From a virus (Monodnaviria > Loebvirae > Hofneiviricota > Faserviricetes > Tubulavirales > Inoviridae), in IMG/VR virus record IMGVR_UViG_2609460053_000007: a stretch of 9,340 nt of DNA, one strand, 5' to 3'. The notes below the pieces were generated by a model that had not been told where the DNA came from, did not search any database, and was given only the letters and a program-made list of their open reading frames with translations. The number at the start of each line of letters is the position of its first letter. Within the stretch, counting starts at the first letter, position 1. Positions 151 to 9,340 of this stretch are shown piece after piece. Both the position numbers and the translations under genes were made by a program.

Positions 151-181
151 ATTGGTTCGCACAATGACGTTATGCTAAAGA

Positions 182-218
182 GGCCGCTGCGGGATACGAT
201 TTTCGCAGCGGCCTTTTC
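182..218 (+). terminator. Rho-independent terminator-like hairpin after the plus-strand accessory operon (copy 1)
   Basis: Perfect 10-bp GC-rich stem GGCCGCTGCG (182-191) / CGCAGCGGCC (204-213), 12-nt loop, followed by TTTTC (214-218). Lies 32 nt after the stop of the 159-aa ORF in the second copy. It could alternatively be an ori or packaging hairpin. Confidence 0.6.
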
Positions 219-247
219 AACATAACGAGTCGTACATTATGCGCACC
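215..247 (-). other. dif-like XerC/XerD recombination site (candidate attP) with extended central region
   Basis: Minus strand reads GGTGCGCATAA-TGTACGACTCG-TTATGTTGAAA. The XerC arm matches E. coli dif (GGTGCGCATAA) 11/11 and the XerD arm matches TTATGTTAAAT 9/11. The central region is 11 bp instead of 6 bp. The dif sequence is quoted from memory. Confidence 0.65.
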
Positions 248-281
248 AATGGTAAGGATGGCAGAATCTGGCGGGAATCGT

Positions 282-309
282 TGACACTGGCCGTCAACTG
301 GCTACTATC
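282..309 (+). promoter_or_regulatory. Candidate sigma70 promoter (TTGACA-16 nt-TACTAT) overlapping an inverted repeat
   Basis: -35 TTGACA at 282-287, 16-nt spacer, -10 TACTAT at 304-309. The -35 sits inside the inverted repeat GTTGAC (281-286) / GTCAAC (294-299). Predicted start near 316, reading antisense to the ORF 388-582. Confidence 0.35.
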
Positions 310-378
310 GACAGTGATTCAAAATCATCCGTTTCTCCAAACGAATCAGAATCAAATGTCTGTCAGCAGTAAGTGAAC

Positions 379-401
379 GGCCTGACCTCACCAATCAGGC
401 C
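379..401. repeat. Inverted repeat / hairpin GGCCTGA-(9 nt)-TCAGGCC
   Basis: Perfect 7-bp stem 379-385 / 395-401. The stop codon of the minus ORF 388-582 lies in the loop. Followed on the plus strand by TGTTCATCC. Possible terminator for a short plus-strand transcript or an ori/packaging hairpin. Confidence 0.35.
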
Positions 402-582
402 TGTTCATCCAGTTAGTTGGTAAATCTGTACCTGATACACGAGAATCAAACACCACTTCTTCAGTGCCATCACCATGATGCCGGAATGCTGGATCTTTAA
501 GAAGCATCACTTTCAGCTCCTGATGTGTCATGAATTTTTCCATGATAAGCCCCGATGAATGCTGCCGCGCCGAATCAGCCAT
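388..582 (-). CDS. Hypothetical small protein (64 aa; possibly 47-51 aa from internal ATGs), cargo position
   Basis: ORF in the six-frame track. No convincing SD before the first ATG; the internal starts (MEKF.., MTHQ..) have weak GGGG/GGAA upstream. No recognisable motif. May be a spurious ORF in a structured non-coding region. Confidence 0.3.
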   Translation of the reverse strand: MADSARQHSSGLIMEKFMTHQELKVMLLKDPAFRHHGDGTEEVVFDSRVSGTDLPTNWMNRPDW

Positions 583-727
583 AACGCTGAAAATGGAAAC
601 TGTACGGCTTGGCCAACCCCGGACAGCAACAAAACAAGTTTTGTCACTGACCGGCGTTATCTTTCAAAACAGACAGTTAACGATTTTTTGTCTGGTGTTT
701 ATGCGTGAAATTTCGTGCGTACGAAAT

Positions 728-976
728 TCACCACCAATAAACAAACGGACGATGACTGACCGGAAAAGCAATGCCGTCAGCATCATGACCACGCATTACC
801 TGATTGAGAAGCCTTCTGACTTCACGACGCTCAGGCCTGGTCATCATCATATTGCGATACCAGGACGGCGATTTATCAAACCATCTGGCACAACTGGCAA
901 AATGTGAACCTACACGACGATAAGACTTAAGGCGGCCACCGGGAAGTCGGTCACGCGCCTTATTTTTTACAGACAT
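728..976 (-). CDS. Hypothetical small basic Arg/Trp-rich protein (82 aa), cargo position downstream of gIV
   Basis: ORF with a good RBS (GAGGA, 6 nt before the ATG at 974-976). Same orientation as the core genes. No recognisable domain. Confidence 0.45.
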   Translation of the reverse strand: MSVKNKARDRLPGGRLKSYRRVGSHFASCARWFDKSPSWYRNMMMTRPERREVRRLLNQVMRGHDADGIAFPVSHRPFVYWW

Positions 977-1064
977 AATAAATCCTCTAAGTAACTGAAT
1001 ACCTAGAAGATGTCGTACTGTTCATACCCCATAAAAGTTAACGCCATAATAAAAATCCATACAA

Positions 1065-3637: not shown

Positions 3638-5350
3638 TTAGGCACTCAGAATAATACGGAGCGCAACAAATCCCCATATAATCAGAAATATGGTTTCTAC
3701 GGCGCTTCTGTTCTGCTCAATTAACGGACAATGGGAGTCAATTCTGTACTGGTGATTAAACACGCTGAATTCAACAACGGGGCAGGATGCTGAACGAGAG
3801 CCGATGTTAAATTCGTTTGTAAAAGGCAACAAATTAATAATTGGCGTTAAAATATCTCTTGCCGTTGGCGTTTCTTCAAGCTCAGGCTCTTTTACACCGG
3901 GATCTTCTCCCAAATCTATATTGCCATTATTTCCAGTGTCAGATCCTGAGTTGTTATTAATGGTAATATCAATATTGACGTCAGCCCCTGCACTGTCAGA
4001 TACAGGTGAAAGCATATCTAATAACGTTGGAGATAGCCTAAGTTCCGACATCGCAGAAGTTACTTCAGCCGGTGAAACCTCTTTAAACGGTAAGCCGTTA
4101 TAATCGGCATTAACGGCAGCTTCAGACCACAGCTCGTTAATCATGTCGGCAAGAAGTGCTGGCGATACACTAACACTATCAAGATACTCCAGATAATCAA
4201 TCATGGACTCAATATTTCCAGCCTCCAGTACTTCCGTCATGGCTTTATATTTGGTATTGGTCCAGATAGTAAGCTCACTCTTTTCATCAATATCTTTTGC
4301 GGTGTAATCCTCTTTTTCAGGAACGGCACAAATCGTCGAATATCCACCATTTGACTGATTAGTCGTTTTACAAGGCGTGTTGTGATACTGATATTGCTTT
4401 CCTGCTGTTAAATAAGCAACGCTGTAATACATGGGAAGCCCTGCTACATTTTCATACATGGGAATACCTGCGGGAAATGAAGATGCGGCCGGGTTGCTAT
4501 ACAAGTGTGTAATCTCAGGTATTTCATAAAATGAGGAAGGATAAGTAAACTTATAATTCTGTTCAGTAAAGGATACATCTCCATTACTGTTGACAACTTT
4601 ATTCGTCACAGTGCGTTCAAAATTCGTTAGTGTTTCAGTATAAGTACGCGAGTTATAGTCATTAAGATAATTTCTGGCAATTTCAGTTGGATTATCACCA
4701 TAGTAATAAATTAGCTCTTTCGAATCCTGATAATAATAAAGTGCATTATCTGGCGTGGAATATCCTGTTTCAACACCTACAACTGGAGAACCCGCATCCA
4801 CATTATTACGACTAACATGAAGGATTACCGGACTTAATTCCTGTGGTTCAAAATTAACGGTTATCGTCTTACTTTCACCACTTTGACCACTGTACGTTAC
4901 TTCATATAAATTATCGGAAATCTTTTTACCGTTAGTCATTACCATTACCGAGCCGTCAGATGAACTCAAAGAAGACGGAACAAAAGATGATACAGCAGCA
5001 GCAATACCCGCCCACGTTGCAACACCGCTCATTTTGTATGATGAGGCAGCAGGCAAGTATTCGGCAGCATTAGCCGCAGCGCGGCCAACAAAAACACGGG
5101 TTGCTGTAAGCTGTGATGCCGTATAAATCGCATCATTGGCAGCAAAGCGACGAACAAGCACCCGGCCAACGACTTTAGGAATAACAGCCCGCGCAGCCAC
5201 TGCTGCAATTGCTGGTACAAATGAATATGAATATCGGGGAAAGGAAACCCAGAGAAAGGAAAAAATAAAGGAATAAACCGTCAGCCTCTTAGCCCAAGAA
5301 TAACGACATAAGCTGAGACGATCCCCCATAAAAGGGAACCCAATTTCCAT
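3638..5350 (-). CDS. Adsorption / receptor-binding minor coat protein pIII-like
   Basis: 570 aa as drawn. Asn/Gly/Ser-rich linker (NNNSGSDTGNNGNIDLGEDPG) and C-terminal hydrophobic anchor (IFLIIWGFVALRIIL), typical pIII architecture. SD GGAG 7 nt before the ATG at 5348-5350. An alternative start at the ATG 5030-5032 (M107) would give a 464-aa product. Confidence 0.75.
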   Translation of the reverse strand: MEIGFPFMGDRLSLCRYSWAKRLTVYSFIFSFLWVSFPRYSYSFVPAIAAVAARAVIPKVVGRVLVRRFAANDAIYTASQLTATRVFVGRAAANAAEYLPAASSYKMSGVATWAGIAAAVSSFVPSSLSSSDGSVMVMTNGKKISDNLYEVTYSGQSGESKTITVNFEPQELSPVILHVSRNNVDAGSPVVGVETGYSTPDNALYYYQDSKELIYYYGDNPTEIARNYLNDYNSRTYTETLTNFERTVTNKVVNSNGDVSFTEQNYKFTYPSSFYEIPEITHLYSNPAASSFPAGIPMYENVAGLPMYYSVAYLTAGKQYQYHNTPCKTTNQSNGGYSTICAVPEKEDYTAKDIDEKSELTIWTNTKYKAMTEVLEAGNIESMIDYLEYLDSVSVSPALLADMINELWSEAAVNADYNGLPFKEVSPAEVTSAMSELRLSPTLLDMLSPVSDSAGADVNIDITINNNSGSDTGNNGNIDLGEDPGVKEPELEETPTARDILTPIINLLPFTNEFNIGSRSASCPVVEFSVFNHQYRIDSHCPLIEQNRSAVETIFLIIWGFVALRIILSA

Positions 5351-6265: not shown

Positions 6266-7318
6266 TTAATGCCAGTTACTGGCATGTGAAATACGGTTAT
6301 AATCGAAAATTAAACCTTTCTCATAAACCCATGATGGAATTTTGGCTGGTTTGGCTTCAAGAGTACGAACCAACGGAACAACGTTATTAGAATCCGGTGA
6401 CTCACAATAAAAGTTAATATCTATTCCGAAAGAAAGTAATTCTTTACGGTGTCGGTAGAATGTAGGTTTCGGTAACATCTCTTTCATGTTCGCGCCCTGC
6501 TTCCACAATAAATATGTAGACTGTATTTTTCTTGGGAGATTAATTATTTTTTCATCAGTTAATATAGTATTTTGATTCATTTCTATTCTCCCTACATAGT
6601 CAGAGAATAATTTATTGGGCGTCTCAATATTCCAGCTATTACCAAGCGTAAGATTCAAATCAATTAATTCAGTTGTTCTTAATGTTAATTCAATGCGTAA
6701 TTTATCTTTTGACCAGTCCAGTAAACCAGCTTTAACGAATTCGTCTGCCATCTGGTGCCCTTTTTTGCCAGATGTATGCTCATCATATTTTGAATAAAAT
6801 TTCAGGCTCCAACGACGGGAGTTTTTCCCTAAGTAAACAGTGCCACCTTTACCACAGGCGCGACCGTGGCGAGTTTTAGCTTTAAATTCTGCGGCATATA
6901 ACCATGCGCGGACATTTTCTAATGTTGACAATGAATACATGTAATTGATATCGATGCGCGAGATCTTAAATTGCCCTTCCATGACCTGCCGATAGGATGG
7001 TAGATCATGAGGAATATGCAGTAATGCCAATATTCTGGCGTAAGCTGTTAACACCAACCCTTGCAAATCGTCGGAACCGATAACAGAGTGACCTTGCAAA
7101 AACTTTGATGGATTACCGTCAATGTAGAGATGTGTTGCCCGACCTTCACCATCAGATCCAACAGACCTTACTTTCATTGTGGACTCATGCGAACCGCGAA
7201 CGGTCAACCGTTTTACTGTTTCCCACTCCACTGCACCGTCAGCATCGACGCTGACGACACTACCAGCCGGTAACGGTCGGTGTGTGCAAGGCAGGATTCC
7301 GGTAAACCAGTCGATCAT
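6266..7318 (-). CDS. Rolling-circle replication initiator (pII / RstA-like)
   Basis: 350 aa; N-terminus MIDW... and motif KFLQGHSVIGSDDL resemble f1 pII (MID..., KVLQGHNVFGTTDL, recalled from memory). First gene of the minus-strand block, divergent from the HTH regulator. Confidence 0.85.
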   Translation of the reverse strand: MIDWFTGILPCTHRPLPAGSVVSVDADGAVEWETVKRLTVRGSHESTMKVRSVGSDGEGRATHLYIDGNPSKFLQGHSVIGSDDLQGLVLTAYARILALLHIPHDLPSYRQVMEGQFKISRIDINYMYSLSTLENVRAWLYAAEFKAKTRHGRACGKGGTVYLGKNSRRWSLKFYSKYDEHTSGKKGHQMADEFVKAGLLDWSKDKLRIELTLRTTELIDLNLTLGNSWNIETPNKLFSDYVGRIEMNQNTILTDEKIINLPRKIQSTYLLWKQGANMKEMLPKPTFYRHRKELLSFGIDINFYCESPDSNNVVPLVRTLEAKPAKIPSWVYEKGLIFDYNRISHASNWH

Positions 7319-7344
7319 AAGTAGTCACACCCATCAAAATATGT

Positions 7345-7416
7345 GTCAATAGTCATTTGTGAGCAGATTGAATGGTCACAATGTAATATGCTCAGTTCTG
7401 ACAGTCAATACATTTG
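7345..7416. promoter_or_regulatory. Imperfect direct repeats GTCAATA(GT)CATTTG: candidate operators in the divergent control region
   Basis: gtcaatagtcatttg at 7345-7359 and gtcaatacatttg at 7404-7416. The second overlaps the predicted -35 of the gII promoter. Confidence 0.35.
7380..7408 (-). promoter_or_regulatory. Candidate sigma70 promoter for gII (minus strand)
   Basis: On the minus strand: -35 TTGACT (7403-7408), 17-nt spacer, -10 TACATT (7380-7385). Confidence 0.4.
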
Positions 7417-7427
7417 CAATGTTTAAA

Positions 7428-7457
7428 TTGTCAGAAATGAGCATCAAATCTAACTAT
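7428..7457 (+). promoter_or_regulatory. Candidate promoter for the HTH regulator gene
   Basis: -35 TTGTCA (7428-7433), 18-nt spacer, -10 AACTAT (7452-7457). Weaker match than the gII promoter. Confidence 0.25.
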
Positions 7458-7489
7458 TGAAAAACCACTGTTAAGATGGAGCCAAGTAG

Positions 7490-7936
7490 ATGGGCAACAA
7501 TGAGCATGAAGTTATGGCGGACAAACAGAGAGCAGAACGTATCAAAAAGGTAATTCTGGAACACTCGACTTATGAAGAACTGGCCAAGAAGACTGGCATT
7601 AGCGTGAGTACGCTGGTCAGGATAGCGTCCGGCAAAACTGAACCTAAATTCAGTGACATCATTCAGATAGCTAAAATTACGGGTGCAGACTTAAACACCT
7701 TAGCTTATGGCTATGCTCTTGATGTTAAAGAAGAAGCTACCGAGCGGAAGCTAATCACTTCTGCGGATGGATATACTGATGAAGAAACCACTAACGCACA
7801 TAATTTCATCGTGTGGAACATCAGGACACTGGAAAAACAAGATATTCTGGCACTCGCAAGGCAGGTTTCTGCCTTAAGTTCATACACTTACAGTACTAAA
7901 ATGTTTATGAAAAAAGCGGTGTCTGGAGAAGAGTAA
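7490..7936 (+). CDS. HTH XRE/Cro-CI family transcriptional regulator, putative phage repressor (RstR-like position)
   Basis: 148 aa; helix-turn-helix signature EELAKKTGISVSTLVRIASGK plus a C-terminal extension of about 70 aa. SD GGAG 8 nt upstream. Divergent from the replication gene, as rstR is from rstA in CTX-type phages. Confidence 0.8.
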   Translation: MGNNEHEVMADKQRAERIKKVILEHSTYEELAKKTGISVSTLVRIASGKTEPKFSDIIQIAKITGADLNTLAYGYALDVKEEATERKLITSADGYTDEETTNAHNFIVWNIRTLEKQDILALARQVSALSSYTYSTKMFMKKAVSGEE

Positions 7937-7947
7937 AAGGATTAACA

Positions 7948-8001
7948 GTCTCAGGAATGAGACAAACGTGCAGTATTACCAACACTGCACGTTCTTTATT
8001 G
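7948..8001 (+). terminator. Tandem hairpins after the regulator gene (terminator or operator palindrome)
   Basis: GTCTCA-GGAA-TGAGAC (7948-7963), then a perfect 10-bp stem AACGTGCAGT (7965-7974) / ACTGCACGTT (7984-7993) with 9-nt loop, followed by CTTTATTG. Confidence 0.5.
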
Positions 8002-8035
8002 TGCGAATTTTGAACAGTGAAAAAGGATCAAAAGG

Positions 8036-8458
8036 ATGAGTAGAAATAACGAAACAAGCGGCGTTGAACTGGTTGTCGTGGGCGTATTTGCTTTCTGTCT
8101 GGCAGTTGTTGCCTGGCTAATGAAAACTTTCGATGTTGAATGGCAAACAGCGCTGGAAACTGCGCCTGGCCTGATAGTGTGGCTGCTTGTTGTCGGGGCG
8201 GGGATCTTTTTCGGGATCAAAATGGAAACAGGCCTTGTTCGCTGGGGTGCTCCACTGGCGATCGCCCTTCTGATTCCGGTATTCAAACCAATTCTTAAGG
8301 AAGCTGCCGGAGTTCGTGAAACGGGTGGGCTGGTTTTCGATGATATGGTTTCGTGGTACGGAACTGGCTGGGGAATGTCGTTGATGTTTTTCGGAATTCT
8401 TATCATCGGATACGGGATGCTTTATTGGTGGCACAGAAGAAATTCATATTACTGGTAA
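8036..8458 (+). CDS. Hypothetical integral membrane protein, about 4 TM helices (accessory operon gene 1)
   Basis: 140 aa; hydrophobic segments at about residues 12-29, 45-61, 70-83 and 112-132; aromatic/basic C-terminus WWHRRNSYYW. SD AGGA 8 nt upstream of the ATG. Confidence 0.75.
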   Translation: MSRNNETSGVELVVVGVFAFCLAVVAWLMKTFDVEWQTALETAPGLIVWLLVVGAGIFFGIKMETGLVRWGAPLAIALLIPVFKPILKEAAGVRETGGLVFDDMVSWYGTGWGMSLMFFGILIIGYGMLYWWHRRNSYYW

Positions 8459-8486
8459 TCAATAAAACGTAGAAGAGAGGAAATAT

Positions 8487-8762: not shown

Positions 8763-9241
8763 TGACAACAAGTGATGCCATCGCTTTAGCTGCGCTTGTA
8801 GTATCGATTTACACTATCATATCATCAGAAGTGAAGTCGAGAAAAAGTGATAGAGAACAAAAGGTTATAAAGGATGAGCAAGACAGATTACGTAAGTTGC
8901 TTCTGGAAAAAGAAACAAAGTCAGCAATTAATGAGATGAAGGCTGAGCTTGGTGCCCGCCTCGTAAAAATAGCCAAAAACAACTATAGACTCAAGATATT
9001 TAATAGAGGGAAAGTTGAGGCTAAAAATATAGAGATTCATTTCCCTGATAACGATGGCAATGAATATCTTTCCATGCATGATGTAGAAGATAAATTTCCA
9101 TATGAAGTATTACACCCGCAACATGGGATTGAAATTTTAGCGGGACTAAGCTTTGGAAGCAAAACTAAATACCGAATAAAACTCATATGGGATGACAATT
9201 ATAAAAAAAGGAATGAAGAGGAGTTTTTCATTTCTATATAA
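8762..9241 (+). CDS. Hypothetical N-terminally membrane-anchored coiled-coil protein (accessory operon gene 3)
   Basis: 159 aa; N-terminal hydrophobic helix (AIALAALVVSIYTIIS), highly charged K/E/R-rich helical region, then a C-terminal domain. Start is translationally coupled to gene 2. Followed by the strong hairpin at 9273-9309. Confidence 0.7.
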   Translation: MTTSDAIALAALVVSIYTIISSEVKSRKSDREQKVIKDEQDRLRKLLLEKETKSAINEMKAELGARLVKIAKNNYRLKIFNRGKVEAKNIEIHFPDNDGNEYLSMHDVEDKFPYEVLHPQHGIEILAGLSFGSKTKYRIKLIWDDNYKKRNEEEFFISI

Positions 9242-9272
9242 ATTGGTTCGCACAATGACGTTATGCTAAAGA

Positions 9273-9309
9273 GGCCGCTGCGGGATACGATTTTCGCAGC
9301 GGCCTTTTC
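9273..9309 (+). terminator. Rho-independent terminator-like hairpin after the accessory operon (copy 2 of 182-218)
   Basis: Identical to 182-218: 10-bp GC stem, 12-nt loop, TTTTC tail, 32 nt after the stop codon at 9239-9241. Confidence 0.6.
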
Positions 9310-9338
9310 AACATAACGAGTCGTACATTATGCGCACC
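9306..9338 (-). other. dif-like XerC/XerD site (copy 2 of 215-247)
   Basis: Identical to 215-247; the window ends 2 nt beyond the XerC arm. Confidence 0.65.
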
Positions 9339-9340
9339 AA

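Follow-up and report, generated by a model that had tools for sequence, protein, structure and literature searches.

The region between the secretin gene gIV and the dif-like site of this inovirus (positions 250-1064) raises the question of whether it carries accessory genes or a structured origin, the two possibilities left open by the initial annotation. The window, that is, the whole stretch of 9340 nucleotides that was analysed, belongs to a dif-integrating inovirus of the CUS-1/YpfPhi type with a unit length of 9091 bp. The explanation that best accounts for all observations together, to which we give a probability of about 0.7, is that this part of the phage genome is its accessory (moron-type) end, with two genuine small genes, the first of which (ORF1) is probably gated by its leader, and with the origin of replication elsewhere.

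The window is 100% identical to a tandem dif prophage located beside hipBA in E. coli SF-173, except for a 54-bp deletion in the second gene, ORF2. Megablast and blastn searches against a phage collection that does not include YpfPhi gave no match. The minus-strand gene gIV (Secretin, PF00263) has its end at 1065, and a dif-like site is present at 220-247. The prophage/host junction falls inside this site, and perfect host dif is seen at the SF-173 junction. The site is part of a CTX-type attP (151-250, no strand assigned) in which two inverted dif-like sites flank a GC hairpin; the corresponding inverted repeats (I1 and I3) are 151-166/235-250 and 168-191/204-227. This attP is the most structured segment of the viral strand (z = -9.7), and the same arrangement is described for YpfPhi in the literature. 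Features of a CTX-type Xer-exploiting integrative element (IMEX) are present: dif-like sites in inverted orientation, able to form a fold in single-stranded DNA, insertion at the chromosomal dif site and tandem copies. The gene order in SF-173 and Yersinia pestis is gIV, ORF1, ORF2, perfect dif, in agreement with the published description (PMC4266046), and both small genes share the transcriptional direction of gIV. The YpfPhi genes YPO2280a and YPO2281 and their CUS-1 homologues are known to occupy the slot of ctxAB in CTXphi, after the secretin gene, and have no predictable function (PMC4266046).

The three ORFs initially listed in the region, 728-976 (minus strand, 82 aa), 388-582 (minus strand, 64 aa) and 530-907 (plus strand, 125 aa), are all present. 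ORF1 (728-976, minus strand) corresponds to YPO2280a of YpfPhi and to the PGAP protein WP_001399975.1. It is rich in arginine and tryptophan (14 R and 4 W; pI 11.5), and its coding status is established by codon-level conservation: 15 divergent orthologues align without gaps over exactly 82 codons with dN/dS values of 0.12-0.26, 57% of the differences are at codon position 3, and its own frame is the only one of the six to be free of stops across the orthologues. The copy of Y. pestis NCTC5923 is 100% identical to that of the window. The plus-strand ORF, already suspected to be non-coding, is interrupted by in-frame stops in most orthologous copies.

ORF2 (388-543, minus strand) codes for an acidic protein of 51 aa and is a deletion allele of the YPO2281/PHROG 6642/WP_001298440.1 family, the members of which are elsewhere 57-69 aa long. 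The 64-aa ORF (388-582) is simply the longest possible reading of this frame; the homologues and PHROG 6642 place the start at MEKF (541-543). The full-length protein of SF-173 matches PHROG 6642 over positions 1-69 of 69 (E = 1e-53), whereas the allele of the window matches it in two pieces (E = 1e-31). The gene is 97% identical to the Y. pestis copy and has pN/pS values of 0.25-0.37 against divergent copies. The 54 bp (18 codons, in frame) missing from the window are present in all related copies, and the junction lies in a CCGGA repeat (481-485). Matches to both flanks were obtained in seven complete E. coli genomes, all of which have the additional 54 bp, and none of the 98 genomes with a match was contiguous across the deletion junction. 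Because this private in-frame deletion removes 18 conserved residues, ORF2 is probably defective in the window. Pfam searches with full-length ORF2 and its homologues and a PADLOC search with ORF2 found nothing. We conclude that ORF2 is a lineage-restricted, exchangeable acidic cargo gene. The comparison with related inoviruses that the initial annotation recommended therefore places both minus-strand ORFs under purifying selection at the protein level. The region does carry cargo, although not a novel one, the two ORFs being the known YPO2280a and YPO2281.

Several non-coding elements surround these genes. A small hairpin (ATTTCGTACGCACGAAAT; 710-727, minus strand), identified by folding, directly follows the stop codon of ORF1, and a near-identical palindrome is found in the Brenneria alni phage L010. 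Further downstream lies a long hairpin of about 20 bp (599-661, minus strand; inverted repeat I2), with arms at 615-635 and 638-658 and the 3' flank GGGGTTGGCCAAGCCG. Its stem is perfect in phage L027, which we infer to be UPphi-like from its gene content (IKe-type structural genes with Ypf-type gII/gV). When the stem was tested across relatives, 92% of cells paired, versus 37-58% with the partner slid, and two pairs are changed on both sides. G-T wobbles make the structure specific to the viral strand, with z-scores of -3.4 and -3.8 there and of -2.0 and -2.2 on the other strand. This element is a candidate cis signal, acting either as a 3' structure of the mRNA or as a single-stranded DNA signal (minus-strand origin or packaging).

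The second element is the non-coding block between ORF2 and attP (250-387, no strand assigned), the single-stranded DNA of which folds strongly on either strand. It contains the best sigma-70-like promoter found by scanning the region (281-308, plus strand, TTGACA-16-TACTAT), and a hairpin is present at 381-403. The block is 97% conserved in L027 and 89% in L028, with the promoter hexamers kept; in these two phages ORF2 is replaced by a plus-strand gene of PHROG 21003 located just downstream of the block. In the Brenneria phage it is not conserved beyond about position 273. The segment 292-411 (z-scores of -4.2 and -4.9) is among the most structured genome-wide. A plus-strand small RNA that would start from the promoter at 281-308 and be antisense to the 3' end of ORF2 was considered; its sole support is the match to the promoter consensus. 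Rfam searches of positions 1-1300 (E<=10) gave sub-threshold noise, such as OrzO-P at 310-406 (21 bits versus 60 required, E = 1.3).

It is possible, at somewhat less than even odds, that 599-661, the block at about 290-410, or both, serve alongside the genes as minus-strand origin and/or packaging signal on the packaged strand, which would be compatible with our main reading. Although its genome as a whole is no more than 72% identical, the Brenneria phage retains 56 nt of 599-661 with 100% identity. The compensatory changes in this stem and its strand-specific G-T pairs, the occurrence of the element in phages sharing pII/pV and its absence from Xenorhabdus and Morganella phages, and the folding of 292-411 (z = -4.2) all point in the same direction. 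On the other hand, the 599-661 hairpin persists beside orphan copies of ORF1 that have no phage, and a strong hairpin is found 30-70 nt past ORF1 in every lineage, which a structure at the mRNA 3' end would explain equally well. A packaging role is also difficult to reconcile with the presence of the hairpin in UPphi-like phages, the morphogenesis proteins of which are unrelated. As for the segment 290-410, it folds equally well on both strands and is not conserved in the Brenneria phage. The UPphi-like phages with the same pII share 599-661 and 233-409 with the window, but also 7947-8035 and attP; positions 274-442 are not conserved in the Brenneria phage, whose pII is 87% identical.

The leader of ORF1 is itself structured. 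The initial annotation credited ORF1 with a good ribosome-binding site, and the sequence GAGGA is indeed present 6 nt ahead of the ATG, but it forms part of a conserved hairpin, in the 3' arm. This 12-bp RNA hairpin (982-1011, minus strand), identified by a terminator scan and by RNAalifold, consists of ATCTTCTAGGTA, a loop and TACTTAGAGGAT, with the Shine-Dalgarno motif at 983-987. Its 5' arm contains the stop codon (1003-1005) of a mini-ORF of 14 codons (uORF; 1003-1047, minus strand; MALTFMGYEQYDIF and stop), the start of which is 17 nt past the stop codon of gIV. An in-frame uORF of 13-14 codons is conserved in all 17 related loci, where it ends in GYE(Q/M)xDIF and a stop codon, 24-29 nt before the ATG of ORF1; the length is counted from the ATG nearest to the conserved core, as the frames in L018 and L027 have further ATGs upstream. 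The N-terminal half is variable among these 17 close loci. The same layout of uORF and hairpin, with unrelated nucleotide sequence, is found in four remote members of the ORF1 family (L023, L029, L032 and L033). Some of the remote members bearing the leader are plasmid copies with no secretin gene ahead, and the members from tailed phages are without leader.

For the inner hairpin, 96% of cells pair, a proportion that falls to 34-56% on sliding the partner. One pair is changed on both sides. A second, outer helix (966-1035, minus strand; RNAalifold columns 21-34 with 79-91) pairs the uORF codons GGxTATGAx with the AUG region of ORF1 (UUAUGUCUGU). It pairs in 94% of cells, has no pair changed on both sides, and also appears in single-sequence folds. 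The two helices taken together pair in 95% of cells versus 34-56% when slid, a test that used the same sequences from which the structure was derived. Covariation in the leader is thin and consists mostly of G-U/A-U/G-C switches; single-sequence folds of eight leaders gave z-scores of -1.9 to -3.7. If the outer helix forms as modelled, for which the evidence is weaker than for the inner hairpin, the start codon of ORF1 may be occluded as well. Conservation of the leader peptide could be explained wholly by constraints on the RNA, because DIF followed by the stop codon is the anti-Shine-Dalgarno sequence read in that frame.

This layout suggests that ORF1 is translationally coupled to its leader. 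On the evidence of the sequence, ORF1 would remain silent until the leader ORF has been translated by a ribosome, probably one that has just completed gIV 17 nt upstream. By terminating within the 5' arm of the stem-loop, this ribosome would melt the structure and expose the ribosome-binding site of ORF1. Coupling of this kind, as in tap-repA, repY-repZ or mok-hok, would keep the output of ORF1 low and tied to translation of the late operon. The ORF1 cassette would then be composed of the leader ORF (1003-1047), the stem-loop (982-1011 plus the outer helix), ORF1 itself and the stable hairpin without U-tract at 599-661.

The terminator scan also scores the inner hairpin, together with the UUAUUAUG that comes after it, as a terminator of gIV, and it could be argued that 982-1011 is a plain intrinsic terminator of the gIV operon, that the uORF is incidental and that ORF1 is expressed by read-through or from its own promoter, uncoupled from the leader. 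In Ff phages a hairpin located right after gIV terminates transcription, and this parallel, together with the U-rich tail flagged by the terminator scan, speaks for such a terminator. We nevertheless consider it unlikely. Although its N-terminal half varies, the in-frame uORF retains a start codon and a stop located in the 5' arm in each of the 17 close loci, and it recurs with different sequences in the four remote members, including plasmid copies without preceding secretin gene. Moreover, the U-rich tail contains the AUG of ORF1 itself.

The function of the ORF1 protein was approached through its distribution. Inoviruses with three different replication proteins carry ORF1 after the secretin gene and before dif. 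Its identity is still 70-76% in phages that have Phage_GPA or Rep_trans in place of pII as replication protein and a secretin of no more than 24-48% identity, and the homologue in the UPphi-like L027 is 83% identical. ORF1 is conserved far better than the phage backbones. Chromosomal dif lies 125-1946 nt downstream, in the same orientation, in 17 loci with a close homologue; in L011 a second inovirus is inserted between ORF1 and dif, and L010, a phage contig, has attP instead of dif. Degraded E. coli prophages still keep the gene, and orphan copies are found beside dif in Pantoea, Brenneria and Erwinia. The Pantoea orphan was also examined as a possible complete mini-element; no dif-like site was found to its left and it is therefore treated as a remnant. 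The family is unannotated and is characterized by the C-terminal motif sPxWW..TRPxRR..L..G.D.D..FPL..KPHxYYW-COOH. A profile search for this C-terminal domain retrieved 153 representative clusters. The contexts include tailed phages, an island beside an MmeI-type restriction-modification enzyme, an integrase/PIN element, IncFIB plasmids of Salmonella, a MOBQ plasmid of Proteus with a type ISP enzyme and a plasmid of Halioglobus.

No credible match for ORF1 was found in Pfam, NCBIfam, PHROG, PADLOC or PDB, and neither small ORF has a Pfam or NCBIfam motif, as had been noted. The PADLOC search with ORF1 gave one sub-threshold match to JetB (E = 0.004, 13.8 bits) and the PHROG search a weak one to PHROG 12343 (E = 1e-3), a family itself without assigned function; profile searches of PDB sequences with two alignments (A4 and A3) gave chance-level matches only. 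AlphaFold2 models are poor (pLDDT 51 with 19 sequences, 64 with 90), and Foldseek found no match in PDB and a best E of 0.7 in BFVD. No signal peptide or toxin domain was detected in ORF1 or ORF2. Because its family spans inoviruses, plasmids, genomic islands and tailed phages, the ORF1 product is best regarded as an accessory factor, and not as a component of morphogenesis or replication or one specific to Xer. Our best guess is that it binds nucleic acid or a partner protein and thereby modulates the host or its defences.

A bolder proposal, which is speculative and has perhaps one chance in several of being right, is that ORF1 represents a widespread undescribed family of small basic proteins of mobile elements that act early on the host or its defences. 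Its leader would be a true switch, operating by coupling or as a nascent-peptide sensor that ends in D-I-F-stop, and once the phage has decayed the gene would persist at dif in domesticated form, as in the Pantoea and Brenneria orphans. Inoviruses would then carry this cassette at their dif-proximal tip. One lead towards an anti-restriction role of the family comes from sequence context, because two remote members adjoin single-chain restriction-modification enzymes.

Two further proposals concern the function of ORF1. The basic ORF1 and the acidic gene that follows might form a two-protein pair (effector/inhibitor or toxin-antitoxin-like), the partner being ORF2 or, in UPphi-like phages, the PHROG 21003 protein. 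The isoelectric points (11.5 for ORF1, 5.2 for ORF2 and 4.8 for the PHROG 21003 protein) and the tight translational gating typical of toxic products would fit such a pair, and an interaction between the two UPphi genes was guessed at by the authors who described them (PMC7307601). This is improbable, since the second gene is inconstant, being absent in the Pantoea orphans and replaced by other genes in Xenorhabdus and Morganella, and since ORF2 of the window lacks 18 conserved residues beside an intact ORF1. No toxin-antitoxin or PADLOC match was found, and both proteins are hydrophilic (GRAVY about -0.8) and do not have the hydrophobic character of type I toxins. Alternatively, ORF1 could be an accessory factor of Xer/dif recombination, like XafT of TLCphi, which would explain its constant adjacency to dif in the 17 loci, the retention of orphan copies there and a conservation exceeding that of the backbones. 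Such a role appears very improbable: there is no match to DUF3653 or any other Pfam family for ORF1 or ORF2 (E<=1), remote members occur in tailed phages, plasmids and islands without dif context, and proximity to dif is expected of any gene that closes the main operon in a CTX-type element.

With an accessory role for ORF1 retained as the preferred reading, the position of the origin remains to be considered. The initial annotation reported that the pII nick site could not be identified anywhere; this holds for the region 250-1064, while the best candidate is located outside it. The proposed lead CTTTAAG is at 495-501 and not at 494-500, is on the plus strand of the window, which is the non-viral strand, and lies inside ORF2. 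It occurs three times in the window versus 1.5 expected by chance, a number matched by 35 of 200 shuffled sequences, and is not a useful lead. Even with three mismatches allowed, the Ff nick region had no match in the window, CTTTAATAG-like matches are at chance level with none in 250-1064, and a scan of viral-strand hairpins in that region for an Ff-type nick core found none.

The candidate plus-strand origin (7947-7993, minus strand) consists of a hairpin AACGTGCAG-TGTTGGTAATA-CTGCACGTT at 7965-7993 and a second hairpin GTCTCAttccTGAGAC, with a predicted nick at GGT^AATA (7978/7977). The former is the only intergenic hairpin of the viral strand with a TAATA-type loop, and we take it to resemble hairpin D of Ff. 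The candidate (z = -4.7) is kept in every relative that shares pII, beside a swapped immunity region, and its second hairpin has two compensatory pairs in the Brenneria phage. In Klebsiella (L020), a shortened prophage copy is joined exactly at the predicted nick. Taken together, the resemblance to Ff, the conservation and this single deletion junction make 7965-7993 the most likely pII nick site, although the hairpin could instead serve to terminate transcription of the repressor gene on the opposite strand. Two truncated E. coli prophages (L034 and L035) were examined for further origin junctions and rejected as uninformative, their deletions being internal or IS1-mediated.

In Ff phages the slot equivalent to the present region holds the origin and the packaging signal. 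The suggestion that the region is such a structured replication/packaging region with chance ORFs, which this equivalence and the presence there of three of the ten most structured 120-nt windows of the viral strand (292-411, 572-691 and 612-731) might support, can be dismissed with near certainty: both ORFs are conserved in length and under purifying selection at the codon level, phages with unrelated replication proteins also carry ORF1 together with its leader and the family extends to plasmids and tailed phages, and the viral strand of the region has no Ff-like nick core.

YpfPhi and CUS-1 have been linked to the fitness of Y. pestis and of extra-intestinal E. coli in infection, and the ORFs at the end of their genomes are obvious candidates for this effect. 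Across dif-integrating inoviruses that are otherwise unrelated, no other gene is as well conserved as ORF1. Its conserved uORF with the hairpin pairing to the Shine-Dalgarno motif, and its wide unannotated family reaching plasmids and tailed phages, are new; the YpfPhi/CUS-1 literature that we covered is silent on the leader ORF with its hairpin, on the wider family and on the orphan copies. A candidate origin of 47 nt (7947-7993) and two candidate single-strand signals are now defined, and the impression given in print that genes II and V are all that UPphi and YpfPhi have in common is corrected. The basic picture of inovirus biology is unchanged by these findings.

Five known systems are relevant for comparison. 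The intergenic region of Ff (f1/M13) comprises the packaging hairpin A, the minus-origin hairpins B and C and the plus-origin hairpins D and E. Like it, the present region follows gIV and contains strongly folding single-strand elements; unlike it, the region is mostly coding and lacks the Ff nick consensus, and the element most similar to hairpin D is 7 kb away (7965-7993). The slot between the morphogenesis/secretion genes and the dif-side end of CTX-type elements is also that of ctxAB in CTXphi and of rstC in the RS1 satellite, RstC being likewise a small protein encoded at that end. Neither has sequence similarity to ORF1 or ORF2, and a dedicated antirepressor would not be expected to occur, as ORF1 does, alongside unrelated repressors and outside inoviruses. 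The closest relatives are YPO2280a and YPO2281 of YpfPhi and their CUS-1 counterparts, the same genes at the same dif-side position after the secretin gene (Derbise & Carniel 2014; PMC4266046), from which the window differs by the private 54-bp in-frame deletion in ORF2. The h1/h2 genes of UPphi (Shapiro & Putonti 2020; PMC7307601) are comparable in that the secretin gene of L027 is followed by an 82-aa gene that has both the leader and the downstream hairpin seen in the window, but its second gene codes for the plus-strand PHROG 21003 protein and not for ORF2.

For the leader, the closest parallels are found outside the inoviruses. In tap-repA of plasmid R1, repY-repZ of IncI/IncB plasmids and mok-hok, a short uORF ends in or near a stem-loop that occludes the Shine-Dalgarno motif and the start codon, and translation of the leader opens the stem-loop. 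In the window the uORF likewise stops in the 5' arm of 982-1011 and GAGGA lies in the 3' arm, from which a dependence of ORF1 on its leader is predicted. Unlike in those systems, no antisense RNA or pseudoknot partner was identified for the ORF1 leader, and the product that would be gated is neither a replication initiator nor a membrane toxin but a small basic protein.

The region between gIV and the dif-like site (250–1064) contains two genuine genes on the minus strand, ORF1 (728–976, 82 aa) and ORF2 (388–543). The initial annotation had offered chance ORFs in a structured region as one of two readings; this is wrong for both, as a protein-level comparison across related genomes, the check it proposed, gives dN/dS of 0.12–0.26 against the window for ORF1 (dS near saturation) and pN/pS of 0.25–0.37 against the Brenneria and Xenorhabdus-type copies for ORF2. 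Relatives of ORF1 form 34 protein clusters (Salmonella, Pantoea, Brenneria, Morganella, Xenorhabdus and Pectobacterium), mostly 82 aa long and 68–98% identical among the full-length ones. Its 82 codons align without gaps across 15 DNA copies, and third codon positions hold 57 per cent of the differences. Of the reading frames, that of ORF1 alone has no stop codon in any of the 15 copies; the plus-strand ORF 530–907, rightly suspected to be non-coding, is thus not maintained as a frame.

When 1.8 billion representatives were searched with a profile, 153 clusters with the C-terminal 45 residues of ORF1 were recovered. The shared motif, sPxWW..TRPxRR..L..G.D.D..FPL..KPHxYYW, finishes exactly at the C-terminus. 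The protein is strongly basic (pI 11.5, net charge +12). Searches of Pfam, PHROG, PADLOC and PDB revealed no relative of the family, and the AlphaFold models were poor and matched nothing; any activity proposed for ORF1 is a guess. Remote members are found in early or replication regions of tailed phages, in an island with an MmeI-type restriction–modification enzyme and a Panacea-domain gene, in an integrase/PIN element, on Salmonella IncFIB plasmids, on a 10-kb Proteus MOBQ plasmid with an adjacent type ISP enzyme, and on a Halioglobus plasmid; given this variety of elements, ORF1 encodes an accessory protein. Two remote members adjoin single-polypeptide restriction–modification enzymes, of MmeI type (locus L023, 10001–12999) and type ISP (locus L032, 1663–7414), which may be a coincidence in accessory-gene hotspots or a functional hint.

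For ORF2, a gene is indeed present where a 64-aa ORF had been listed; that length is the longest mechanical reading, and both the homologues and PHROG 6642 start at MEKF (541–543), giving 51 aa in the window. A 52-residue core is conserved and the tail is variable. The window copy lacks 54 bp (18 codons, RAAYEAESQNPQSGYQII) that are present in E. coli SF-173 and its relatives, and CCGGA repeats flank the gap (481–485). The 54 bp are present in every one of the seven complete E. coli genomes with matches on both flanks, and among the 98 genomes with a hit not one matches contiguously across the junction, which makes the deletion allele private to this 9340-bp NCBI contig (P0045). In the Brenneria alni phage (L010, 8572–9010), a 146-aa ORF carries the conserved ORF2 C-terminal half (..DFQIIRH....GTEEVMFDS) behind an N-terminal region that is longer and different.

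Between distant loci, DNA similarity reaches 55–75 nt upstream of the ORF1 ATG. This leader contains a mini-ORF of 14 codons (MALTFMGYEQYDIF and a stop; 1003–1047, minus), beginning 17 nt past the gIV stop. An in-frame mini-ORF of 13–14 codons is present in 17 of 17 close loci, counted from the ATG closest to the conserved core, as L018 and the UPphi-like prophage L027 hold further in-frame upstream ATGs. In these loci its first half is variable and its end is ...GYE(Q/M)xDIF-stop, 24–29 nt before the ORF1 ATG. A 12-bp hairpin (982–1011) has the mini-ORF stop in its 5' arm and the ORF1 Shine–Dalgarno sequence as its 3' arm, and in an outer helix the codons GGxTATGAx are paired with the ORF1 AUG region. 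Across these helices 95 per cent of cells pair, against 34–56 per cent with the partners slid; covariation is modest, with one pair altered on both sides and many pairs showing G-U/A-U/G-C switches.

The same architecture recurs, in unrelated nucleotide sequence, in remote members of the family, with leader peptides MSWYPALDIF (L023), MGIFYWGQDIF (Halioglobus plasmid), MYLLQEHF (Salmonella plasmids) and ...ALDSL (Proteus plasmid), each followed by a stop. In each, the 5' arm contains the stop, and the Shine–Dalgarno sequence is within or beside the 3' arm (fold z −1.9 to −3.7); the tailed-phage members have no leader. This shared layout despite unrelated sequence is the strongest argument for a gate. 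We read the leader and hairpin as putative translational coupling, in a layout like that of the coupling systems tap-repA, repY-repZ and mok-hok: ORF1 would be translated only once a ribosome finishing the leader has opened the stem. Most of the conservation of the leader peptide may reflect RNA constraint, because DIF-stop is the anti-Shine–Dalgarno sequence in that frame. Given the unpaired CAR-NNN-GAY and the similar ...LDSL-stop of Proteus, which is encoded by different bases, the peptide itself may still have some role.

The ORF1–ORF2 spacer (583–727) is structured as single-stranded DNA of the viral strand (z −3.8, equalled by 0 of 200 shuffles; z −2.0 for the other strand). The spacer is dominated by an element made up of a stem of roughly 20 bp (615–658) and the flank GGGGTTGGCCAAGCCG; 56 nt of this element are identical in the B. 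alni phage, itself only 72% identical overall, and compensatory changes keep the stem perfect in the UPphi-like copy. In the stem 92 per cent of cells pair, against 37–58 per cent when slid, with both-sided change in two pairs. The hairpin, which has no U-tract, occurs in phages with common pII/pV and beside orphan copies of ORF1; the Xenorhabdus and Morganella phages lack it and have other strong hairpins in its place. Its role may be that of an mRNA 3' structure or of a signal on the single strand; packaging is the less likely function, since the UPphi-like phages share the hairpin and not the morphogenesis proteins.

The block 250–387 folds strongly, to the same degree on the two strands (z −4.2 and −4.9), and includes the best sigma-70-like promoter of the region (281–308, plus). 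It is 97 per cent (L027) and 89 per cent (L028, a related locus) conserved directly upstream of a PHROG 21003 gene that stands, on the plus strand, in place of ORF2, and is therefore probably the promoter and leader of this alternative cargo gene; in the window the promoter would read antisense into ORF2. A sub-threshold match to the Rfam OrzO-P type I antitoxin RNA (310–406, plus; 21 bits against 60, E 1.3), spanning the interval from the promoter-like site to a hairpin at 381–403, is most likely due to chance.

The origin most likely lies outside 250–1064. The CTTTAAG proposed as a nick lead at 494–500 is actually at 495–501; it is at chance frequency (three copies found, 1.5 expected), and since this one is on the non-viral strand inside ORF2, it cannot be the pII nick of the plus strand. 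The viral (packaged, mRNA-sense) strand is the window minus strand, as follows from the genes it carries: gII (Phage_CRI, E=1e-73), gV, the coat genes, gIII, gVI, gI/zot and the secretin gene gIV, which ends at 1065. An HTH repressor gene and three small genes lie on the plus strand. The UPphi-like prophage has Ypf-type gII/gV (93% nucleotide identity) and otherwise shares with the window only attP, 233–409, 590–661, ORF1 with its leader, and 7947–8464; the immunity region 7319–7946 is swapped, so the origin is not there. Among the intergenic hairpins of the viral strand, a TAATA-type loop occurs only in AACGTGCAG-TGTTGGTAATA-CTGCACGTT (7965–7993), resembling hairpin D of Ff, AGTCCAC-GTTCTTTAATA-GTGGACT, nicked at CTTT^AATA. 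It is identical in L027, L028 and the Klebsiella spallanzanii copy L020, with one loop change in the 72%-identical L010. A second hairpin follows it, with two compensatory pairs in L010. Its surroundings rank second in structure on the viral strand, after attP. In the truncated K. spallanzanii prophage, sequence within gIV is joined to ...GT|AATACTGCACG, exactly the predicted nick (L020 7226–7293, equal to window ~2176 joined to ~7978), as would be expected of aberrant pII initiation or termination. Followed by TTCTTTATT, the hairpin might just as well be the repressor gene's terminator, on the other strand. We put slightly better than even odds on a plus-strand origin at 7965–7993; whichever its role, nothing resembling a pII nick site was found in 250–1064.

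A 46-nt copy of the segment with this hairpin is duplicated near the L020 deletion junction. The 10-mer TTCGCACAAT (8004–8013, viral strand, just upstream of the hairpin) is also present, on the opposite strand, within the attP arm GGTTCGCACAATG (156–165). The repressor gene and the intergenic region upstream of gII (7319–7946) make up an exchangeable immunity module that closely resembles the heteroimmune rstR/ig-2 modules in CTXphi: relatives with gII more than 93% identical have a different HTH gene (39% identical or unrelated), and homology breaks sharply at 7318/7319 and 7946/7947.

The window consists of one 9091-bp filamentous prophage unit and a 249-base terminal direct repeat (1–249 and 9092–9340), and has the appearance of a tandem prophage that was collapsed, or of a circular replicative form, assembled into a single contig. 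E. coli SF-173 has a tandem prophage at dif, beside hipBA, 100% identical to the window, and the stretch 130–1100 has near-full-length matches in about 90 further complete E. coli genomes. The start of gIII (3638–5350) is uncertain because the ORF has 570 aa from the first ATG and the PGAP product in SF-173 has 520 aa (1563 nt). The same phage is found in tandem on the 248-kb IncFIB/IncHI1B Klebsiella pneumoniae plasmid NZ_CP132684.1 (L030), inserted at the plasmid dif-like site GGTGCGCATAATGTACGTTATGTTAAAT (11784–11811). An identical ORF1 is also encoded by NZ_CP128883.1, a circular E. coli record of 9565 bp labelled 'plasmid', which may be the free replicative form of a CUS-1/YpfPhi-type phage. 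The CTX-type attP (151–250) comprises two inverted dif-like sites flanking a GC hairpin. Its 72-nt core (inverted dif-like arms and GC hairpin; window 153–224, L031 3001–3071, L028 14677–14750) recurs with about 93% identity at 476 E. coli plasmid places, adjoining STM4504/CBY_0614-family and ISNCY transposase genes. In one chromosome its neighbour is a SIR2-family gene adjacent to hipA. This suggests that non-phage cargo elements exploit this Xer attachment module too.

ORF1 is a mobile cassette and not a core phage gene. Its position, after the secretin and upstream of dif (125–1946 nt downstream in 17 loci), is constant across otherwise differing backbones: Ypf/CUS-1; a UPphi-like backbone with IKe-type structural genes (ORF1 83% identical); Xenorhabdus inoviruses with a Phage_GPA replication protein (secretin 46–48%, ORF1 70%); and a Morganella inovirus with Rep_trans (secretin 24%, ORF1 76%). 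It also stands beside chromosomal dif without surrounding phage genes in three Pantoea genomes (L005, L006 and L008, ~9925–10510), in Brenneria sp. L3-3Z together with ORF2 (L009, ~9927–10622) and, truncated, in Erwinia (L021, 1492–1787); no dif-like site was found on the left side of these orphans. Both ORFs are intact in two degraded E. coli prophages. The orphan copies retain the leader and downstream hairpin. In Pantoea an Rpn/Transposase_31 gene follows dif, and the remote homologue on the Salmonella plasmids likewise adjoins an Rpn gene.

The element is a CUS-1/YpfPhi phage: backbone genes and both small ORFs are 97–100% identical, protein by protein, to the Y. pestis copy, in which the three small plus-strand genes beyond the repressor have no match. 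The initial annotation is confirmed with corrections; all the ORFs it listed are present, and its reading of the region as novel cargo holds as to cargo and fails as to novelty, the ORFs being already known as hypothetical genes (the PGAP label of both). ORF1 and ORF2 correspond to YPO2280a and YPO2281 of YpfPhi, for which a review gives no predictable function and which occupy the slot of ctxAB in CTXphi (PMC4266046). New here are the conserved leader ORF with its putative gate, how large and widespread the ORF1 family is, the finding that ORF1 is the constant gene at the dif-proximal end in several inovirus lineages and also occurs at dif as an orphan, and the homology of accessory genes between YpfPhi and UPphi, earlier reported as absent.
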